Shown: positions 6,183 through 63,327 of the stretch, piece by piece | How the letters are laid out: the number at the start of each line of letters is the position of its first letter | How positions within the stretch are numbered: the stretch's first letter is position 1 | Assembly (NCBI GenBank): GCA_965248535.1 | Contig: CBDFJR010000002.1 | Location: 1,664,001 to 1,728,000, forward strand | Origin: Phormidesmis sp. | Lineage (GTDB): Bacteria > Cyanobacteriota > Cyanobacteriia > Leptolyngbyales > Leptolyngbyaceae | Length of the DNA stretch: 64,000 nucleotides | Reading direction: 5' to 3' | Program-made: the position numbers and the translations under genes | Notes under the pieces: model-generated | Told to the model about the DNA's origin: nothing | Seen by the model: the letters and a program-made list of their open reading frames with translations, nothing else | Databases searched by the model: none

Positions 6183-6285
6183 GCCGAACTATTGGATATA
6201 CGGAAACTTTCCGTATATCTCCCTAATTTGAGCAGATACCCCGAAGCTTTCCGTATATAGCCCCTCACTTTTCATCAGATATCTT
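6183..6285 (-). other. attI-like site 1: core GTTCGGC plus repeated palindromic boxes
   Basis: Core exactly complements R'' GCCGAAC of the downstream attC; perfect IR GATATACGGAAA-C-TTTCCGTATATC (6195-6219) and a degenerate copy 40 bp away (6235-6258). Confidence 0.55.
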
Positions 6286-6348
6286 AGAGCAACGATCGCC
6301 CCCTCTCTTCCCAAAACCCGATCGCTTCCTTCTCTTCAAAATTCAGCC

Positions 6349-6377
6349 TTCCAAAAAACAAAAAACTCTTGTACAAT
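6349..6377 (+). promoter_or_regulatory. Putative sigma70-type promoter of unit copy 1
   Basis: TTCCAA-N17-TACAAT, identical spacing in copy 3 (63232-63204). Confidence 0.6.
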
Positions 6378-6384
6378 ACACCGC

Positions 6385-6611
6385 AGTGATGGAGTTGTGC
6401 CCCGAAGTCTGATGTGGCTATCAGACTCCGAGGACTTCCATCCCTAGTTACTACCGATAACTCAGGAGGCGTTCATGATTGTACACCGTCAGCTTTGCTA
6501 TGGGATCTTGAAAGGCTGGAATCAAGATCCTGCATACAGTTTTCCCCTCAACCGAATTTCTGAGCTATCAGAGTTTTTGTCCTCTTTGAATTAATCGAGA
6601 GGACAAAAAAC
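6385..6611 (+). promoter_or_regulatory. Conserved structured RNA leader (four hairpins), copy 1
   Basis: Stems AGTCTGAT/ATCAGACT, AGTTA/TAACT, GGATCTTGA/TCAAGATCC, TTTTTGTCCTCT/AGAGGACAAAAA conserved across three copies; loops of the first two vary. Confidence 0.65.
6475..6594 (+). CDS. Unannotated 39-aa leader ORF (MIVHRQLCYGILKGWNQDPAYSFPLNRISELSEFLSSLN)
   Basis: AGGAGG 5 nt before ATG; same start, length and stop in all three copies. Confidence 0.55.
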   Translation: MIVHRQLCYGILKGWNQDPAYSFPLNRISELSEFLSSLN

Positions 6612-6983
6612 ATGGCAGTTAGGACGATCGTGCCTAGCTCGATTTCGTTCACCATTGAGTTACGTTGCTCAATCGAAAAGCGTTATCGGGTGAGTGTGAC
6701 TTTGGATTTGCAAGAGCGTTATCTCTTTGTGTCGTCTGGCATTGTTTCGGATGTTAGCGACTGCATTGAAGAGTTCGTGTCTCAACTGAGTGAAATTTCA
6801 TCCAATCAACTAGCATTGCTGAAATGGGATGGCACGAGTGATTTGACGACCGAGTATCAGATTGTTCGAGTGTTGCCCGGTTATCAAGTAGAACGATCGC
6901 TTGTGAAGTTCAACATTGTTCTGGGCGATGGTTCATTAATTCAAGTAGAGGAATTGCACAACAAAACGACGATTCAACTGTGA
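6612..6983 (+). CDS. Conserved hypothetical 123-aa protein, copy 1
   Basis: Three intact paralogs (115/123 identical to copy 2 and 107/123 to copy 3 by manual alignment), many synonymous changes, GAGGA RBS. Confidence 0.85.
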   Translation: MAVRTIVPSSISFTIELRCSIEKRYRVSVTLDLQERYLFVSSGIVSDVSDCIEEFVSQLSEISSNQLALLKWDGTSDLTTEYQIVRVLPGYQVERSLVKFNIVLGDGSLIQVEELHNKTTIQL

Positions 6984-7342
6984 TTAGGGTTGGGGAGCCG
7001 TCGATTATCTTTTGGGAATCTGTGCAGCCAGCGATCGGGCAACTTCTCGGTCTAGGTCTAATTCAAACTCTGATATTCCCCATTTTGGCGGCTCTCTAAC
7101 TCTGTAAATCTTTAGGGAATAAAGCGATCGTGTCTCCTTTAGGGCGCTAGATAATTCACCCTCTGTTGCGAAATGCCCGCAAATGGCACAAATTTTTAGG
7201 AATCAGAACACTAAGACTCATTCAGGTTGAGTCTGCTGGTGTTAAATGCCCTTGCCAAGGGTGGCTTGACCGATATCTCAATAATTCGACCCTCAGATGG
7301 ATGGTAGCTTGTGCTCTCAACGTCCATGACCATAACGGTTAG

Positions 7343-8071
7343 TCGCCTCAAGGGGTAGCGTTTCCTCTGTTTTGGCATCTATTAGACAAGCGGGGTAACT
7401 CGAACACGCAAGAGCGCTTTGATCAGTGGGTCGAGTTTTTGTGCGTCTTTGCACCCGAAGACATCGCTTTTTTGACCGCAGACCGAGAGTTTATTGGCAC
7501 CCAATGGTTTGCCTTGCTAATGGCAGAGCCTGTGACTCGCTTTCGCATCCGTATTCGCGAGTCGGAGTTCCTGTTTGATGGGCAGCAATCGCTTAAAACC
7601 ACGATTGTGTTTCAAGATTTGCAGCCTCATCAATCCAAGGTGCTGTCACGCAAACGACGGCTTTGGGGGCATTGGCTTTACTTGGCAGGATTACGACTCG
7701 AAGACGGGTCGTTGCTGGTGGTTGCCACGAACCATGAACCCTCCACTGCCATTGCTGACTATGCTCTGCGTTGGGGCATCGAAACCTTGTTTGGCTGCTT
7801 GAAAACTCGTGGCTTTTGCTTGGAGGCAACCCACCTTAAAGACCAGGAACGGCTCAAGAAGCTCATCGCTCTCTTAACCTTGGCATTTTGCTGGGCGCAT
7901 CGGGTTGGCGAATGGGTGGTGGAACGTCAGCCCATTCAAATCAAAAAGCATGGACGCAACGCCAGGAGCATCTTTCGTACCGGGTTAGATCACCTCCGCC
8001 AGATTTTACTCAACCTCGATACTCGTCAAGCGCAGTTTGTCCAAGTTCTAAAACTTTTGTCCTGTACTTAG
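7343..8071 (+). pseudogene. 5'-truncated IS4-family transposase remnant
   Basis: ADREFIG and YALRWGIETLFGCLK (YREK signature); ends ...LLSCT*; frame opens only after a stop at 7340. Confidence 0.85.
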
Positions 8072-9017: not shown

Positions 9018-11015
9018 GTACGCCCAGCATGGGCGTGAACTAATGGGGTGAAAGTCCCCTGGAGGAGAACCAGCGCCCAAATGATCCCAAAAGATCCGAG
9101 TGGTGATCACTCCTAGCTCAAGGCAAGGGCGTTTCCGTGAGGGAAGGTCTGAAGGAAGCCAGCGGCAAACCGACGAGCCGACGAACAGAAATGTCATAGA
9201 AGGCTGAGACCCCTGGGTGAGGAGCGCACAACACAACGAAACCTCTGGTTCAAGGGGCACAGTAAATGACACGGTTGCGGCGGGACAGTTCACGGTCTTA
9301 TCTGGGGAGGTCTGTGCGGTTGCGGTCTTAAAGATCATGGGAGTCTGACTGAGGTCTCGCGGGAAACGGCGAGGGAGCCACAGAACCCTAACGTCAAAAG
9401 ACAGCGCCCTGAAGAGTAATCTCAAGGGTTCACCGTACAGAAGTCAGCAGAGTCCATAGTAGTTTCCTTGTGAAACGAAGGGACGAACATGAACGAACTA
9501 AGGAGGAGCGATGAACAACTCAGACCCATCGATGAACCCGGATGGGGGAGATGGGGTTTGGCGTTCGGACAGAGAGCCAGCCTTAGACAACCTGATGGCG
9601 CGAATCTTAGAGCGCGACAATGTTCAAGCAGCCTGGAAACGGGTGCAGTCAAACAAGGGTGCGCCCGGTAGCGACGGGATGACCTTAGAAGACTTTCCTG
9701 CCTACGCCCGCGAACATTGGCAAGAGATTCGCCAGTCCTTACTCGATGGCAGCTACCAACCACGTCCTGTACGCCGGGTAGTGATTCCCAAGCCGAGAGG
9801 CAAGGGAGAGCGGAAATTGGGGGTTCCTTGTGTCATAGACCGAGTGATCCAGCGACAAGCCATCTTACAAGTGCTCACGCCAAGGGAAGCGGAAATTGGG
9901 GGTTCCTTGTGTCATAGACCGAGTGATCCAAGCCATCTTTGCTCACGCCAATCTTTGACCCAAGCTTTTCTGAGTCAAGCTATGGCAGCCGACCCCAGCG
10001 TTCGGCTCATGGAGCAATCCAACAGGTGAAAACGATTGTAAAAGCTGGATATCGTGTTGTGGTCGATTTGGATCTGGAGAAATTCTTTGATACCGTCAAC
10101 CATGATGTTTTGATGTCTCGTGTTTCCCGGAAAGTCACTGATAAAGTGCTTTTGGGGTTAATCGGTCGTTACCTGCGAGCCGGAGTGTTGGTCGGGAACA
10201 CCGTTGAACCGACCGACTGGGGAACCCCGCAAGGGTCTCCCCTTTCACCCCTGTTGTCGAATATCCTTTTAGATGATTTAGACAAAGAGCTAGAAGCGCG
10301 AGGACATCGGTTTGTTCGTTACGTGGACGACCTGGTTATTCTGGTCAAAAGCAGACGAGCAGGGCGACGGGTGATGGCGAAAATCAGCCGTTATTTGACC
10401 CAAACCCTCAGGCTCAGAGTCAATCGGGAAAAGAGTCGAGTGGTCAAGATTGAGGATTTGAATTACTTGGGATTTACGTTCCGAGGGATTCGCATTTTCG
10501 TCTGCCAGCAAGCTCTGCAAGACTTCCAGCATCGATTGCGCGGGTTAACCTCGCGCAGTTGGGGAGTCTCAATGTCAGAGCGTTTCGTGCGCTTGAACCG
10601 ATACTTACGGGGGTGGATGAACTACTTCGGCATTTCTCAGCACTACACCCCAATCGCAGAGCTAGATGGTTGGCTCAGGCGACGCATTCGCATGTGTTAC
10701 TGGAAACAGTGGCGCAGACCGAGAACGCGCATTGCTAACTTGCTCAAGTTGGGAACCAGTAAGCGTCATGCGATTTTGACCGGCATTAGTCGCAAAGGCT
10801 TTTGGCGTTTGTCAAAGACTCTCGCAACGCAAACGGGAATGACGAATGAGTGGTTAGAACAACAGGGATTGTTATCGATTCGCCAACTCTGGATGAAAGT
10901 ACAGGGTTACGCTTAAGTGATCAGCGTTGTTTGCGCGTCTTCATGAACCGCCCATTGCGGACCCGCATGATGGGTGGTGTGGGAGGGGAGAGTTAAATGC
11001 TCTCCTCGACCCGAT
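9018..11015 (+). mobile_element. Group IIC (attC-targeting) intron
   Basis: 5' GTACGCCCAGCATGGGCG; domain V ACCGCCCATTGCGGACCCGCATGATGGGTGGT (10947-10978, CGC triad); domain VI ending CCCGAT; inserted at TTGT/TA in the attC bottom strand, opposite to cassette genes. Confidence 0.9.
9511..10916 (+). pseudogene. ltrA: Group II intron reverse transcriptase/maturase, split by an internal ~79-bp duplication
   Basis: NKGAPGSDG, RKLGVP, DLEKFFD, GTPQGSPLSPLL, YVDD, domain X GWMNYF; no endonuclease domain; two ORFs 9511-10029 and 9939-10916. Confidence 0.9.
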
Positions 11016-11291
11016 TATGCGTTGCTCGACACAACCGATCGCGCCCCAACTTCGCCAGACCGCACATCTCAAAAGACGAAGAACTCGGCATTCGCGGACG
11101 GATTTAAATCCTATGCGACCCGTCACCTCCCACTCTCAACGAAGTATCTTTGCTAAAGTCAACACCGATAAGTCGGCGCGATCGTTATAAACCACCTTAA
11201 CTTTCGCACTCACCAACCCGTTCTCAATATCGTTGATACTTAGATTAACGACAACTCTAAAAAACCGTGTTGACAGCTTGTCGGGCTGGCG

Positions 11292-11450
11292 GTCTAACTA
11301 CTATTTCTGCCGTTTGAACTCCTATCAAACAGGATAAATGCCTCTCTCAGAGAAATTATGCTGTATGCAAACCGGATAACTCCCATTTTTTTAGGAATTA
11401 TCCTGAATTCCCACAGGATAACTCTCCGATTTCGGGTAATTATACGGAAT
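11292..11450 (-). other. attI-like site 2: core GTTAGAC plus 42-bp periodic palindromic boxes
   Basis: GTTRRRY core at 11298-11292; TTATNCNG at 11356/11398/11440 and GGATAA at 11332/11374/11416. Confidence 0.5.
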
Positions 11451-11656
11451 GGCGCTCAGACTTCTCGATTCTAGGGGAGCCGTGAGTAAATTGTCTCGTT
11501 CCGATGAATCAGTCATGGCGCTGAGTCGATCGCATCCCTGCCGTTGCTCGACTGGAACATAAATCAGGGAGAAGTTACGATCGCCCCCCTCTCTTCCCAA
11601 AACCCGATCGCTTCCTTCTCTTCAAAATTCAGCATTCCAAAAAACAAAAAACTCTT

Positions 11657-12916
11657 GGGCACCTCGAAAAATTTGCCAAGAGGAGTCTTAACGTGAGACA
11701 AGTGTGAGATCATAGTTATAGAGCAGTGATGGGGCAATTGCAATGACACAGCCTGGATTTTGGGATTGGGAAACGCGCCAAGATAAGCTGAACCAGAAGC
11801 AAGACTTACTGGTGCGACTCAATGAGATTGTCCCCTGGGAAACTTTTCGCCCCTTGCTCGAACCCATTCATGACAAACCGCGCAAGAGTAATGCTGGACG
11901 CAAGCCGATGGATGTGATTGTGATGTTTAAGCTGCTGGTGTTGCAACAGTTGTACAACATTAGTGATGAAGCCTTGGAGTATCAAGTGAGTGACCGCTTA
12001 TCCTTCATGCAGTTTCTCGATTTTGGGTTAGCAGATGAGGTTCCAGATGTAACAACGGTATGGTTGTTCCGTAAGCAGTTAACAGAGCAAGCATTAATTG
12101 AACCATTGTTTGAGCAATTCGATGAGTATTTGATTCAGCAAGGCTACGCAGCTCAAGGAGGACAAATTGTCGATGCTACATTGATTCCCGTTCCCAAGCA
12201 GCACAACAGCAAGGATGAGAATCAACAGATTAAGCAAGGAGAGATTCCCCCATCGTGGCAAGACAACCCGCATCAACGTTCTCAGAAAGATAGCGATGCT
12301 CGATGGACGAAAAAGGGGGGTAAGAGCTACTTCGGCTACAAAGATCACATCAGCATTGATGCCCAACATGGGTTGATTCGTCAGTATGCTGTGACCGATG
12401 CCTCGGTTCATGATTCTCAAGTTTTGGGTCAACTCCTCGATGACGACAATGAGAGCGACAAGATTTGGGCAGATAGTGCTTACCGCGCTGAAGCAATTGA
12501 GGAAACGTTGAAGTTGATGCAGTTCGATAGTCAGATTCATGAGCGGGGATATCGCAACCGCCCGTTAACGGAAGAACAGAAGCAGTCTAATCGCACTAAG
12601 TCCACCACGCGCGTTAAAGTCGAGCATGTGTTTGGGTGTTGGGTGATGCAGATGGGTGGCAAACTGCTGCGTTCGATTGGCATTCAGCGGGCAACGGCAC
12701 AATTGGGATTGAAGAACTTGACCTACAACTTGTTGCGGTACACCTTCTTGGAAACGAAAGCAGTCGGTTAAGAAGTGGGAGCAGGAGTGATCTTGAATGG
12801 AGCCTGGATGAATCAATATTGCTCAGGTGAATGAGGGAGAAGCGATAGGCTTACATAGCTCTCTTCAGTCTCATTTGAGATCCTGATTCGCTAAAAATCA
12901 ATTAATCGAGGTGCCC
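11657..12916 (+). mobile_element. Complete IS5-family insertion sequence (1260 bp)
   Basis: Terminal IRs GGGCACCTCGAAAAATT / GGGCACCTCGATTAATT (15/17); 4-bp target duplication TCTT confirmed by the empty site in copies 1 and 3. Confidence 0.95.
11743..12771 (+). CDS. IS5-family transposase
   Basis: GRKP, DRLSF..F, PD.TT.W.FR, IVDATLI, ADSAY, R.KVEHVFG. Confidence 0.95.
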   Translation: MTQPGFWDWETRQDKLNQKQDLLVRLNEIVPWETFRPLLEPIHDKPRKSNAGRKPMDVIVMFKLLVLQQLYNISDEALEYQVSDRLSFMQFLDFGLADEVPDVTTVWLFRKQLTEQALIEPLFEQFDEYLIQQGYAAQGGQIVDATLIPVPKQHNSKDENQQIKQGEIPPSWQDNPHQRSQKDSDARWTKKGGKSYFGYKDHISIDAQHGLIRQYAVTDASVHDSQVLGQLLDDDNESDKIWADSAYRAEAIEETLKLMQFDSQIHERGYRNRPLTEEQKQSNRTKSTTRVKVEHVFGCWVMQMGGKLLRSIGIQRATAQLGLKNLTYNLLRYTFLETKAVG

Positions 12917-13026
12917 TCTTGTACAATACACCGCAGTGATGGAGTTGTGCCCCGAAGTCTGATGTACCAGATCAGAACTCCGAGGACTTCCATCCCTAGT
13001 TAGCGTTCATAACTCAGGAGGCGTTC

Positions 13027-13146
13027 ATGATTGTACACCGTCGGCTTTGCTATGGGATCTTGAAAGGCTGGAATCAAGATCCTGCATACAGGTTTTACCC
13101 CAACCCAATGTCTGAGAGATCCGTGTTTTTGTCCTCTTTGAATTAA
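13027..13146 (+). CDS. 39-aa leader ORF, copy 2 (MIVHRRLCYGILKGWNQDPAYRFYPNPMSERSVFLSSLN)
   Basis: AGGAGG RBS; same frame and length as the other copies. Confidence 0.5.
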   Translation: MIVHRRLCYGILKGWNQDPAYRFYPNPMSERSVFLSSLN

Positions 13147-13163
13147 TCGAGAGGACAAAAACT

Positions 13164-13535
13164 ATGGCAGTTAGGACGATCGTTCCTAGCTCGATTTCGT
13201 TCACCATTGAGTTGCGTTGCTCAATCGAAAAGCGTTATCGGGTGAGTGTGGTTTTAGATTTACAAGAGCGTTATCTCTTCATGCCCTCTGGCATTGTCTC
13301 GGATGTTAGCGACAGCATTGAAGAGTTTGTGTCTCAACTGAGTGAAATCTCGTCTAATCAACTAGCATTTCTAAAATGGGATGGCACGAGTGATTTGACA
13401 ACCGAGTATCAGATTGTTCGAGTGTTGCCCGGTTATCAAGTAGAACGATCGCTTGTGAAGTTCAACATTGTTCTGGGGAGTGGTTCATTAATTCAAGTAG
13501 AGGAGGTGCCCAACAAAACCACCATCCAACTCTAG
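13164..13535 (+). CDS. Conserved hypothetical 123-aa protein, copy 2
   Basis: Paralog of 6612-6983 and 62597-62968. Confidence 0.85.
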   Translation: MAVRTIVPSSISFTIELRCSIEKRYRVSVVLDLQERYLFMPSGIVSDVSDSIEEFVSQLSEISSNQLAFLKWDGTSDLTTEYQIVRVLPGYQVERSLVKFNIVLGSGSLIQVEEVPNKTTIQL

Positions 13536-54480: not shown

Positions 54481-55269
54481 TTAAGTTAGGCGATCGGGGT
54501 CTACTCCCAGTCTTCGCAACTCAGCCGCTAGCAACTCGGCTCGCTGGTGCTCTTGGTCTGCTCGCTGGCGCTCTTGGTCGGCTCGCTGCTGTTCTTGGTC
54601 GGCTCGCTGGCGCTCTTGGTCTGCCTGTTCTGCACTCCAAAGCAGCAAATTGCCAGACGCATCCCACCAGCGCAGCCAGTTTGCGGTTTGTCGGAGACGC
54701 TCCCCCGACCAAATTCCTAAAAATAGATTTAACTCAGGAATCCACACCCGCTTCTGCTCGTTGGCTTCTTGCATGATGTAGCGCTTATCCCGCAGGCACC
54801 GCACTTCTAAACTGGGTTCGTAAGGGTCGTAGGTGACATAGGTGGGCACTTGCAAAACTTGCTCATAGAAATAAAGCTTGCCATAGGGAGGAGTCGATCG
54901 CACTGACAGCTCGCCTCCCTCTTCTTGAGAGAGAAACTCCATCGCGATCGCAACTGGGGCACCGTCTAGATTAGGCGTGTAGCTGCGTCGAATCGTGCCC
55001 TCTGCTATGGGATGCACTTGGGGCACATAAAACCAGTCTGGGGCTTTGACCACCGTTTTTTTGTTGACCGTGGCCACCAACCCAAAGTTTGAGCCAATCA
55101 GCATTTCTGGCTGAATACACTCATTTGCTCCTAGGGCATCGGTTAGGGCGGCGGCGAGGGGCGGCTGTTGAATATTTTCCACGGGGTCATCTGTTAACGC
55201 AAAATCAACGGGCAGCGCTTCCCAGGTGACGATCGGGTCTTTTTTGGCAGATGGAGTTTGCAAAACCAT
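54481..55269 (-). CDS. Uma2-family endonuclease-like protein with heptad-repeat tail
   Basis: PDW, EFLS, K..FYE, WLRWWD; 21-bp tandem repeats (QERQRAD) at ~54537-54625. Confidence 0.85.
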   Translation of the reverse strand: MVLQTPSAKKDPIVTWEALPVDFALTDDPVENIQQPPLAAALTDALGANECIQPEMLIGSNFGLVATVNKKTVVKAPDWFYVPQVHPIAEGTIRRSYTPNLDGAPVAIAMEFLSQEEGGELSVRSTPPYGKLYFYEQVLQVPTYVTYDPYEPSLEVRCLRDKRYIMQEANEQKRVWIPELNLFLGIWSGERLRQTANWLRWWDASGNLLLWSAEQADQERQRADQEQQRADQERQRADQEHQRAELLAAELRRLGVDPDRLT

Positions 55270-62596: not shown

Positions 62597-62968
62597 CTAG
62601 AGTTGAATCGTAGTTTTGTTGTGCAACTCCTCCACTTGAATTAAGGAACCCTCACCCAGAACAATGTTGAACTTCATTAAAGAGCGTTCAATTTGATAAC
62701 CGGGCAACACTCGAACAACTTGGTACTCTGTGGTCAAATCACTGGTGCCATCCCATTTGAGAAAGGCCAGTTGATTAGACGCAATCTCACTCAGTTCTGA
62801 GACGAACTCTTCAATGCGATCGCCAACATTCGGAAGAATGCCAGACAGTACAAAAAGATAACGCTCTTGCAAATCTAATCTCACACTGACCCGATAACGT
62901 TTCTCCGTTGAGCATCGCAACTCAACGGTGAACGAAATCGAGCTAGGCACGATCGTCCTAACTGCCAT
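62597..62968 (-). CDS. Conserved hypothetical 123-aa protein, copy 3
   Basis: Paralog of 6612-6983. Confidence 0.85.
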   Translation of the reverse strand: MAVRTIVPSSISFTVELRCSTEKRYRVSVRLDLQERYLFVLSGILPNVGDRIEEFVSELSEIASNQLAFLKWDGTSDLTTEYQVVRVLPGYQIERSLMKFNIVLGEGSLIQVEELHNKTTIQL

Positions 62969-62985
62969 GGTTTTTGTCCTCTCGG

Positions 62986-63105
62986 TTAATTAAAAGAGGA
63001 CAAAAACACGGATCTCTCAGACATTGGGTTGGGGGGAAATCTGTATGCAGGATCTTGATTCCAGCCTTTCAAGATCCCATAGCAAAGCCGACGGTGTACA
63101 ATCAT
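62986..63105 (-). CDS. 39-aa leader ORF, copy 3 (MIVHRRLCYGILKGWNQDPAYRFPPNPMSERSVFLSSFN)
   Basis: AGGAGG RBS; conserved frame and stop. Confidence 0.5.
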   Translation of the reverse strand: MIVHRRLCYGILKGWNQDPAYRFPPNPMSERSVFLSSFN

Positions 63106-63327
63106 GAACGCCTCCTGAGTTACTTGCGCTAACTAGGGATGGAAGTCCTCGGAGTCTGATCTGGTAAATCAGGCTTCGGGGCATAACTCCATCACTGCGG
63201 TGTATTGTACAAGAGTTTTTTGTTTTTTGGAAGGCTGAGTTTTTTGGCAGGAGCGATCGTGGTTTGGTTCCGTCTGCTCTAAGCAAGAAGTTACATCTTA
63301 ATAAATCCACAATCCTAAGAAGGTTAG

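Follow-up and report, generated by a model that had tools for sequence, protein, structure and literature searches.

In R1-type plasmids, kissing between RNA loops sets specificity and incompatibility. In the hok/mok/sok loci, translation of a leader frame (mok, which overlaps hok) is required for the downstream gene, which codes for the small membrane toxin Hok, and the antisense RNA targets the start of leader translation. In IS10, a dispersed multicopy element, the antisense RNA-OUT folds into a long imperfect hairpin, and pairing begins between its loop and the 5' end of the mRNA; RNA-OUT covers the ribosome-binding site (RBS) and acts in trans on all copies of the element (multicopy inhibition). 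Here we describe a cassette of ~700 nucleotides (nt) in a cyanobacterium, Phormidesmis sp. (assembly GCA_965248535.1), that works like antisense and leader-peptide systems yet is a member of none of them. It was found in a stretch of 64,000 nt (contig CBDFJR010000002.1, positions 1,664,001 to 1,728,000), which we call the window and whose numbering is used throughout. In plasmid R1, the tap leader peptide is coupled to repA in translation, and CopA acts by inhibiting synthesis of this peptide (PMC12361487). The Sib/Ibs loci of Escherichia coli are described as several highly similar cis-encoded small RNA (sRNA)/mRNA pairs in one genome, in which recognition of the cognate partner depends on two short domains within the most variable regions, one of them a loop, and involves a YUNR loop (PMC2943612), and a bioRxiv abstract gives the IbsA toxin as 19 amino acids (aa).

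The region at 6385 to 6536, which an initial annotation had labelled a candidate new cis-regulatory RNA motif with conserved stems and variable loops, is the leader of this cassette, of which there are three copies in the window (A, B, and C) and 17 in the genome. All 17 are on two Mb-sized contigs of the 5.03-Mb genome, share 88 to 100% identity over a 255-nt core (BLAST and genome search), and sit among mutually unrelated flanking genes; BLAST of the cassette against the whole genome returned nothing beyond them and one upstream fragment. We conclude that the leader is a new structured control region, that a 39-codon short open reading frame (sORF) is very probably translationally coupled to a downstream ORF for a 123-aa protein, and that a copy-specific cis-antisense RNA probably, not certainly, controls it. 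The composite reading is that an antisense RNA encoded opposite the 5' untranslated region (UTR) would block the sORF and hence the coupled ORF, with two hypervariable hairpin loops as putative copy-specific kissing determinants; judged on sequence comparisons, we give it a probability of about 0.5.

Copy A has a 5' UTR of ~90 nt with two hairpins, the second of which hides part of an RBS. A promoter-like site read from the sequence (plus strand; TTCCAA at 6349 to 6354, a 17-nt spacer, and TACAAT at 6372 to 6377) predicts a start at ~6383 to 6385. Among 86 distinct sequences (122 loci were collected, of which 8 lack a full core, and the 114 full cores reduce to 86), T1, A2, and T6 of this -10 hexamer are constant, and variation is confined to positions 3 to 5. 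Hairpin 1 (6388 to 6442), with hypervariable loop 1 at 6414 to 6419, is better formed in minus-strand RNA by both folds and pair counts, and is followed on the plus strand by hairpin 2 (6443 to 6466, CCU-AGUUA-N7-UAACU-c-AGG) with loop 2 at 6451 to 6457. The 3' arm of hairpin 2 covers the first half of the RBS AGGAGG (6464 to 6469), CCU pairing with the first AGG, as had been proposed for the leader Shine-Dalgarno (SD) sequence. The sORF (6475 to 6594, 39 codons and a stop) contains hairpin 3 (6503 to 6530, GGAUCUUGA-N10-UCAAGAUCC), and its stop codon lies in the loop of a fourth hairpin of 12 bp, the coupling hairpin (6574 to 6609, UUUUUGUCCUCU...AGAGGACAAAAA), whose 3' arm holds a second RBS (GAGAGGA, 6597 to 6603) just before the 123-aa ORF (6612 to 6983), a member of an orphan family. 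An alignment of the 17 copies places a hairpin at the 3' end of the cassette (6989 to 7100, plus strand, GUUGGGGAGCC...GGCUCUCUAAC), and most copies have a shorter version of it than copy A. Folding gives z = -3.54 for 6384 to 6625 on the plus strand and z = -3.84 for 6345 to 6472 on the minus strand.

Copies B (12916 to 13535, plus strand) and C (62597 to 63215, minus strand) are organized in the same way. In copy B, the -10 hexamer is at 12922 to 12927, hairpin 1 at 12938 to 12994 (loop at 12964 to 12970), hairpin 2 at 12995 to 13018 (loop at 13003 to 13009), the sORF at 13027 to 13146, and the ORF at 13164 to 13535; the corresponding minus-strand features of copy C are at 63209 to 63204, 63193 to 63138 (loop at 63167 to 63161), 63137 to 63114 (loop at 63129 to 63123), 63105 to 62986, and 62968 to 62597. 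The three hairpins described in the initial annotation are present in all three copies, with the quoted sequences GTGGCT, GTACCAG, and TTACCAG in loop 1 and CTACCGA, GCGTTCA, and GCGCAAG in loop 2 (copies A, B, and C, respectively). A three-way alignment bears out its statement that substitutions cluster in loops, these loops being the sole clustered differences in the first ~170 nt, and hairpin 3 is indeed invariant, with 28 nt identical in the three copies and 0 matches in 100 shuffles; chance would not produce such a pattern. That account had overlooked the copy number, the position of hairpin 3 within the sORF, the fourth hairpin, and the strand asymmetry of hairpin 1. Its label of a cis-regulatory motif is incomplete: for hairpin 1 the better-supported structure is that of the other strand, the sequence of hairpin 3 is part of a translated sORF, and what the leader ultimately controls is probably the 123-aa ORF, through translational coupling.

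The novelty of the motif holds. With Rfam 15, the sole matches in the whole window are two group II intron models at 9131 to 9483, and with permissive filters the best match in 6250 to 7060 has E = 3.2 and 18.5 bits against a threshold of 41, leaving no known family at threshold and nothing below E = 3. RNA thermometers represented in Rfam (ROSE, fourU, and others) are not matched, and the weak hairpin 2 may still act in a thermometer-like manner. A paper on RNA structures in 202 cyanobacterial genomes, anchored on KEGG orthologue groups, does not mention the element in its accessible part, and a literature search pairing Phormidesmis with antisense RNA returned nothing relevant.

As in the CopA/CopT-tap-repA region of R1 (IncFII), the sORF stop (6592 to 6594) is in a hairpin that hides the downstream RBS, an arrangement from which we infer coupling, and the mirror-image hairpins form better as antisense RNA. 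Unlike R1, the cassette is chromosomal, with all 17 copies on Mb-sized contigs and 4 to 19 dispersed matches per genome; its product is a 123-aa orphan and not a replication initiator, its antisense RNA is a prediction, and it has no sequence or Rfam relationship to R1, nor any match in 72,556 plasmid records or in phage collections. The likeness to Sib/Ibs is one of sequence organization: 17 near-identical copies have variable, presumptively single-stranded segments in the form of two hypervariable loops, one of them beside a translation start, and the 17 loop combinations in this genome are all unique. However, Ibs toxins are very small and their sRNA overlaps the whole ORF, whereas the cassette ORFs are 39 and 123 codons long and not hydrophobic, its variable parts are exactly 7-nt hairpin loops, and its copy number reaches 19 rather than 5. 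The main ORF, at 123 aa and predicted to be globular, is also unlike type I toxins in general, which usually have fewer than 60 aa and are hydrophobic or membrane located. With hok/mok/sok the cassette shares a leader frame with predicted coupling and a putative antisense RNA at the leader start, although its frames are separate and joined by a hairpin, and its product looks soluble. Like IS10, the cassette is dispersed in many copies and has a predicted antisense hairpin RNA that would cover the RBS. It differs from IS10 in that its loops vary between copies, which would abolish multicopy inhibition, and in that no transposase family was detected.

In the composite reading, translation of the sORF would melt the coupling hairpin and so switch on the 123-aa ORF. 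A cis-antisense RNA of ~100 to 120 nt would be transcribed from a minus-strand promoter at the sORF start, where a -10-like hexamer (TACAAT, 6478 to 6483, minus strand) forms the reverse complement of sORF codons 2 and 3. Starting a few nt past this hexamer, it would cover the RBS and hairpins 2 and 1 (6352 to 6473, minus strand, with approximate ends predicted from strand asymmetry and the minus-strand fold), contain the anti-SD sequence CCUCCU, fold into mirror-image hairpins, and end in a U-rich tract complementary to 6355 to 6366. This RNA would bind the mRNA leader first by loop-loop kissing and block the sORF, and hence the ORF, and the two 7-nt loops would decide which antisense RNA acts on which mRNA. 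If recognition starts at the loops, and with 4 to 19 near-identical cassettes per genome, selection would keep the loops different, giving each copy its own control. Candidate benefits of such insulation would be those of an addiction module, of a mobile element escaping trans-inhibition, or of independent regulation. A broader proposal, which is possible but which we hold as tentative and on balance doubtful, is that every genome of the genus has up to ~19 mutually orthogonal antisense/leader pairs on a single invariant scaffold, with both kissing loops under diversifying selection and exchanged by recombination. Such pairs would be to the chromosome what incompatibility groups are to plasmids, and would serve a selfish cassette, addictive or mobile, whose product has no known family or fold.

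The cassette is narrowly distributed. When 41 genomes were searched at the DNA level, the core was present in this genome and in all seven others of the genus (named relatives are Phormidesmis), with 4 to 19 matches each, and absent from 17 other genomes of the family, each of a different genus, and from 16 genomes of other families. The exact 28-mer of hairpin 3 occurs in 47 stretches of a species-genome collection, all titled as Phormidesmis or Leptolyngbyales-cyanobacterium metagenome-assembled genomes, and in 32 metagenome stretches. Outside the genus, profile searching across 401 class genomes detected the 123-aa protein in one genome of another family (G119) and gave a weak match in one more (G128, E = 1.2e-4). 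Among 57 genomes of the G119 family, another member of its genus also has the protein, and the two genomes together have four copies, with a protein identity of ~46%. A leader covariance model run over 151 class genomes recovered the 17 copies and G119 (E = 6e-11), together with one doubtful match without strand asymmetry (G156, E = 0.005) and a weak pair in a third genus (G147, E = 1.3e-4), with identical matches at both ends of a ~3.4-kb contig. This third-genus element, a weak model match, has the hairpin 1 core GCCCC...GAGGACUUCC in common with the cassette, is followed by a 135-aa ORF that is unrelated, and folds at -37.5 kcal/mol antisense versus -20.7 kcal/mol sense. The same ~100 nt recur at both ends of its contig (L141, L144), suggesting a small circular replicon, on which the 135-aa ORF has a lipoprotein-like N-terminus and a large ORF has no Pfam match.

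All four second-genus copies keep the order of promoter, hairpin 1, hairpin 2, sORF with internal hairpin, and coupling hairpin. The -10 hexamer, at the same place, is TATACT in three copies and TACAAT in one, and two copies carry a TTGACA or TTGACG -35 hexamer and thus a near-consensus promoter. Hairpin 2 has a 4-bp stem and a 7-nt loop and places CAA/UUG (L125) or CCAA/UUGG (the other three) just upstream of the RBS. The sORF, of 30 to 31 codons, starts MILRQLC and holds a 12- to 16-bp hairpin of different sequence in place of hairpin 3, and the coupling hairpin has the sORF stop in or beside its loop and GGGAGGA in its 3' arm. The minus-strand hexamer, invariably TACAAT in the 86 sequences of the window genus, is TAAGAT at the same place in all four copies. 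Stems differ from those of the window genus and differ among the four by compensating changes, and both loops differ among all four. The inference of selection on structure made in the initial annotation is thus supported, by helices kept with different sequences in the second genus and by a non-loop leader ~13-fold less diverged than four-fold degenerate sites.

The structural evidence for an antisense RNA comes from strand asymmetry. Hairpin 1 has a mean folding energy of -15.9 kcal/mol in the sense and -27.5 kcal/mol in the antisense direction, with the antisense better in 86 of 86 copies (hairpin 2 is weak, with a mean of -5.4 kcal/mol). When the same 34 pairs are scored on both strands, the plus strand pairs in 87.6% of alignment cells (covariation score, 0.033) and the minus strand in 95.8% (score, 0.094). 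At the polymorphic positions 6392, 6397, 6407, and 6408 and the near-fixed 6402 and 6405, the sense RNA has A.C or C.A mismatches where the antisense RNA has G.U or U.G. Sense hairpin 1 is mismatched at up to 6 of 24 pairs, every one of them a wobble on the other strand. Polymorphism in the opposite direction is limited to one near-fixed G.U (85 of 86 copies), and the sense 3' arm never has the C-to-U changes that a sense hairpin would tolerate. The whole leader behaves likewise in the second genus, at -24 to -32 kcal/mol sense versus -38 to -42 kcal/mol antisense in all four copies. Downstream, the preference is reversed: second-genus hairpin 3 folds at -21 to -28 kcal/mol sense versus -11 to -21 kcal/mol antisense, favoring sense in all four copies, as does the coupling region, and in the window genus sense pairing is kept through changes at 6586-6597 (U.G 69, U-A 12, C-G 4) and 6588-6596 (G-C 66, A-U 9). 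The change of polarity thus falls in the interval that separates hairpin 2 from hairpin 3, exactly where both genera have a minus-strand TAnnnT hexamer, and it argues against a general mutational bias as the source of the asymmetry.

The second line of evidence is the variability of the loops. Across the 86 copies, the mean pairwise difference per column is 0.38 to 0.76 in the 14 loop columns, and non-loop columns from the -10 box to sORF codon 20 have a diversity of ~0 except for a handful of two-state transitions. Rates were computed from 53 copies (1,378 pairs): 22 of the 122 loci lack the full 641-nt span, leaving 76 distinct sequences, from which 1 unparsed sequence, 10 with a broken ORF, and 12 with loops not of 7 nt were removed. 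In this set, four-fold sites of the 123-aa ORF differ by 0.351 on average between pairs of copies, the non-loop leader together with the 5' part of the sORF by 0.026, loop 1 by 0.485, and loop 2 by 0.662. Jukes-Cantor distances are 0.78 for loop 1 and 1.60 for loop 2 versus 0.32 to 0.41 for sORF codons 21 to 33, which serve as a local neutral-like benchmark given their lack of a codon-position effect; the loops therefore exceed that benchmark ~2-fold and ~4-fold, respectively, and they are saturated even where the four-fold distance is below 0.1 (n = 4 pairs). The internal unpaired bases of hairpin 1 are conserved in the 86 copies, and lack of pairing alone thus does not explain the loop variability. 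This rate excess, as read from the alignments, fits diversifying selection. Hairpin 3 is near-invariant beyond the window. Since 79 of the 122 loci were fetched by its exact 28-mer, this can be judged only from the other 43, which were obtained by BLAST; those 43 show one stem change (A to G, G.U compatible) and two loop changes.

The loops also have sequence preferences. In 83 distinct leaders (alignments A3 and A4, chosen by two fixed landmark motifs and therefore biased to conserved flanks), 35 loop-1 and 58 loop-2 sequences occur in 81 combinations. Antisense loop 1 contains YUNR in 59 of the 83 (shuffled mean, 24.0; standard deviation, 3.9), U is at the second antisense loop position in 58 of 69 loop-1 and 61 of 80 loop-2 sequences, and a purine is at position 4 in 72 of 80 loop-2 sequences. 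Such YUNR loops are described in the Sib/Ibs account as initial RNA-RNA recognition sites (PMC2943612). Within the cassette, a same-strand partner for the loops was sought and rejected, with best-match means of 6.13 versus 6.24 and 6.17 versus 6.25 for own versus foreign loops (63 copies), as was pairing of loop 1 with loop 2 (2.78 own versus 2.73 foreign, 63 copies); a constant match is offered by just one partner, the complementary loop that an opposite-strand RNA from the same copy would have. Together with the minus-strand pairing of hairpin 1, the fast loops give indirect support to the analogy with antisense systems drawn in the initial annotation, the antisense transcript itself being a prediction.

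Other origins for the variability were set aside. The leader is not a coding sequence, as its loops have indels of 1 to 3 nt and neither strand has a long frame. Nor is it the target of a diversity-generating retroelement: genome BLAST finds the cassettes and one upstream fragment alone and no template repeat, the variable positions take all four bases and have indels, and the nearby reverse transcriptase belongs to a group II intron. An orthologue-based estimate of the loop rate was abandoned as confounded, since only two groups share long flanks and cassettes at shared sites are often not closest relatives.

The sORF keeps its exact length of 39 codons in 68 of the 72 copies that were parsed (the table omits 3 of 75 copies with a variant RBS or start, two of them with ACG for ATG). 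Differences at codon positions 1, 2, and 3 are 0.021, 0.042, and 0.006 in codons 1 to 20, where third positions are the most conserved, and 0.291, 0.259, and 0.317 in codons 21 to 33, with no effect of codon position. On these alignments, the comparison supports a 5' half constrained as nucleic acid and not as protein, and a middle that behaves as neutral sequence in an sORF kept open but not conserved as a peptide. Retention of frame and length despite the neutral-like middle argues that the sORF is translated; its 39-aa product has no long hydrophobic stretch.

Several observations weigh against the composite reading. A sigma-70 consensus scan of 6200 to 7100 found 0 promoter-like and 0 terminator-like sites on either strand, a good -35 is lacking for the minus-strand hexamer, and ~22 nt separate hairpin 1 from the U-rich tract, which is therefore not a canonical terminator. 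Four RNA-library runs from two studies have contigs that cover the leader and ORFs of relatives at 82 to 99% likeness, one of 157 nt spanning 6385 to 6537 and others beginning upstream of the promoter; these carry neither strand nor end information and may include DNA, and the antisense RNA is thus deduced from sequence. Some 6 independent sites carry the strand argument (P of roughly 0.03 when treated as a sign argument), and two pairs of the coupling hairpin, 6576-6607 and 6589-6595, favor the minus strand, for which a short antisense RNA offers no explanation. Covariation in a deeper alignment is weakly present: in a joint alignment of 87 sequences, 7 pairs change on both sides (shuffled means of 1.9 and 1.0; 0 of 500 shuffles reach 7), but all of these double changes come from four outgroup rows of one genus, some of whose pairs, including part of two helices, are misregistered by MAFFT. 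Within the genus, hairpins 1 to 3 have no compensatory double changes because their stems do not vary on both sides. Loop 2 of the second genus lacks the xUNR bias. A raised mutation rate in hairpin loops would give an equal loop excess, and recombination between copies can decouple loop from ORF divergence, such that the excess could be overestimated. Finally, the 123-aa protein resembles no known toxin, replication protein, or transposase, so that it gives no hint of why copies would be insulated. Exchange between cassettes may be illustrated by loci L018 and L109, which share 559 nt without a difference (the flank, the 123-aa ORF, and the coupling hairpin), whereas their sequences part in the sORF and stay different upstream of it, through both loops; this mosaic reflects either cassette recombination or chimeric metagenome assembly.

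One competitor dispenses with an antisense RNA: hairpins 1 and 2 would set mRNA stability or gate the RBS, for example as a temperature or factor switch, the sORF would couple the ORF, and the terminal loops, which are commonly the most variable part of structured RNAs, would vary as the sole unconstrained bases. The partial sequestration of the RBS by a hairpin of only -5.4 kcal/mol, the plus-strand fold (z = -3.54), the lack of a co-varying or complementary loop partner within the cassette, and the lack of a called promoter or terminator for an antisense RNA are all as expected from such a purely cis-acting leader. It does not, however, account for a sense hairpin 1 with up to 6 of 24 pairs mismatched, all as wobbles on the other strand, or for a sense 3' arm that never uses tolerable C-to-U changes, and unconstrained loops should not evolve 2 to 4 times faster than sORF codons 21 to 33, show position-specific biases, and stand beside other unpaired leader bases that are invariant. 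We regard it as unlikely. Less probable again is a mobile-element DNA feature, in which hairpins would form in single-stranded minus-strand DNA, or inverted repeats would be bound by protein, with the loops as spacers. G.T pairs are tolerated in DNA hairpins, making the strand asymmetry compatible with this, and the region is rich in insertion sequences (IS) and introns, the 17 cassettes are dispersed among unrelated flanks, and 8 copies have an upstream module that starts after TAAC, with which the cassette end hairpin also ends. But the hairpins are internal, between promoter and RBS and not at the ends of the unit, hairpin 2 overlaps the RBS in both genera, and the G.U pairs of second-genus hairpin 3 can be read as plus-strand RNA alone. 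In addition, the 123-aa protein matches no transposase, recombinase, or Rep family, and no empty site or target duplication could be defined, copy C flanks being unmatched in five related genomes; this explanation is improbable.

Two further readings give the loops other partners. They could be recognition sites of the cassette's own 123-aa protein, as a copy-specific, co-evolving RNA-binding autoregulator, which is an orphan with a confident but unmatched predicted fold (predicted local distance difference test [pLDDT] score, 89) and is always encoded together with the loops. Against this, the protein is under ordinary purifying selection and has no hypervariable patch that could correspond to the 58 variants of loop 2, copies with related ORFs do not share loops accordingly, and loop-1 and loop-2 variants are reshuffled among copies, such that we consider it slightly more improbable than the DNA feature. 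A conserved scaffold with short variable single-stranded segments is also the design of guide or seed RNAs, and the cassette might make a family of trans-acting sRNAs, from either strand, with loops as seeds for different cellular mRNAs and ORFs that are incidental. In a genome of 5 Mb, though, a 7-nt seed is too short to be specific, loop turnover is too rapid for conserved targets, and the tight linkage to the sORF/ORF architecture in two genera points to local control; this we find the least probable of the four. Copy-specific antisense control of a coupled leader is thus the reading that we prefer.

The 123-aa protein shows a codon-position profile (0.106, 0.052, and 0.289 at positions 1, 2, and 3) of ordinary purifying selection. 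It has 418 close homologues, of which those with a source name are all hypothetical proteins, and 12 representatives in a library clustered at 50% identity. An AlphaFold2 model (pLDDT, 89; predicted template modeling [pTM] score, 0.83) predicts a mixed beta/alpha globular fold (beta3-long helix-beta hairpin-beta). Foldseek gave nothing below an E value of 0.07 and the exhaustive aligner VIA-align nothing above Z = 4.5, no Pfam, NCBIfam, PHROGs, or PADLOC family matches above threshold, and the Atlas gave no usable match. Neither cassette ORF has an above-threshold match in Pfam, NCBIfam, or PHROGs, whether to a transposase (HUH Y1, DDE, and similar), as would be expected of an insertion sequence, or to any other family, and the protein matches no Rep family.

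If the antisense reading is true, the cassettes would be a natural library of dozens of orthogonal 7-nt loop pairs on one scaffold (35 loop-1 and 58 loop-2 sequences), offering material for studies of kissing-loop RNA-RNA specificity and for orthogonal translational regulators, and the antisense, leader-peptide, and coupling logic of enterobacterial plasmids and toxin-antitoxin loci would extend to chromosomal cassettes of cyanobacteria. Even without an antisense RNA, this is clearly a new RNA leader family with an unusual signature, namely conservation that peaks at third codon positions and terminal loops whose rate of change exceeds that of neutral sites, and it provides a handle on an orphan protein family multiplied to 4 to 19 matches per genome in one genus.

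The cassettes are embedded in other repeated and mobile sequences. A non-coding module of ~300 to 330 nt precedes 8 of the 17 cassettes (11290 to 11585 in the window, and 7 others), always right after TAAC, and two solo fragments of it are elsewhere in the genome; the ~330-nt module matches no RNA family and has no significant fold (z = -1.65). This module and the 3' hairpin ending in TAAC may mark the true ends of a mobile unit. A group II intron (9131 to 11260; Rfam domains D1 to D4 at 9131 to 9296 and 9405 to 9483) ends just before the upstream module of copy B, and its reverse transcriptase/maturase is split into two overlapping ORFs (9511 to 10029 and 9939 to 10916, RVT_1 and GIIM). An IS at 11658 to 12915, coding for a 342-aa DDE transposase (DDE_Tnp_1, DUF772) and having inverted ends with the same 6 bases on either side, splits the -35-like region of copy B from its -10 hexamer; the -35-like region is displaced by the insertion, and the native upstream half of the promoter is lost.

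The neighborhood of copy A is likewise pieced together from the remains of mobile elements. Upstream of copy A, a palindromic repeat (6195 to 6260, core ...TATACGGAAACTTTCCGTATAT...) is present as two tandem units, and it also occurs upstream of another cassette; within the stretch compared with RNA-library contigs of run X1, it has the highest summed depth (83 to 114). Just downstream of copy A, a truncated DDE transposase ORF of 210 aa (7439 to 8071) retains the C-terminal DDE_Tnp_1 part alone. Elsewhere in the window, four to five tandem copies of a 21-nt unit are present at 54536 to 54640, with 64 to 93% identity to the reference copy.

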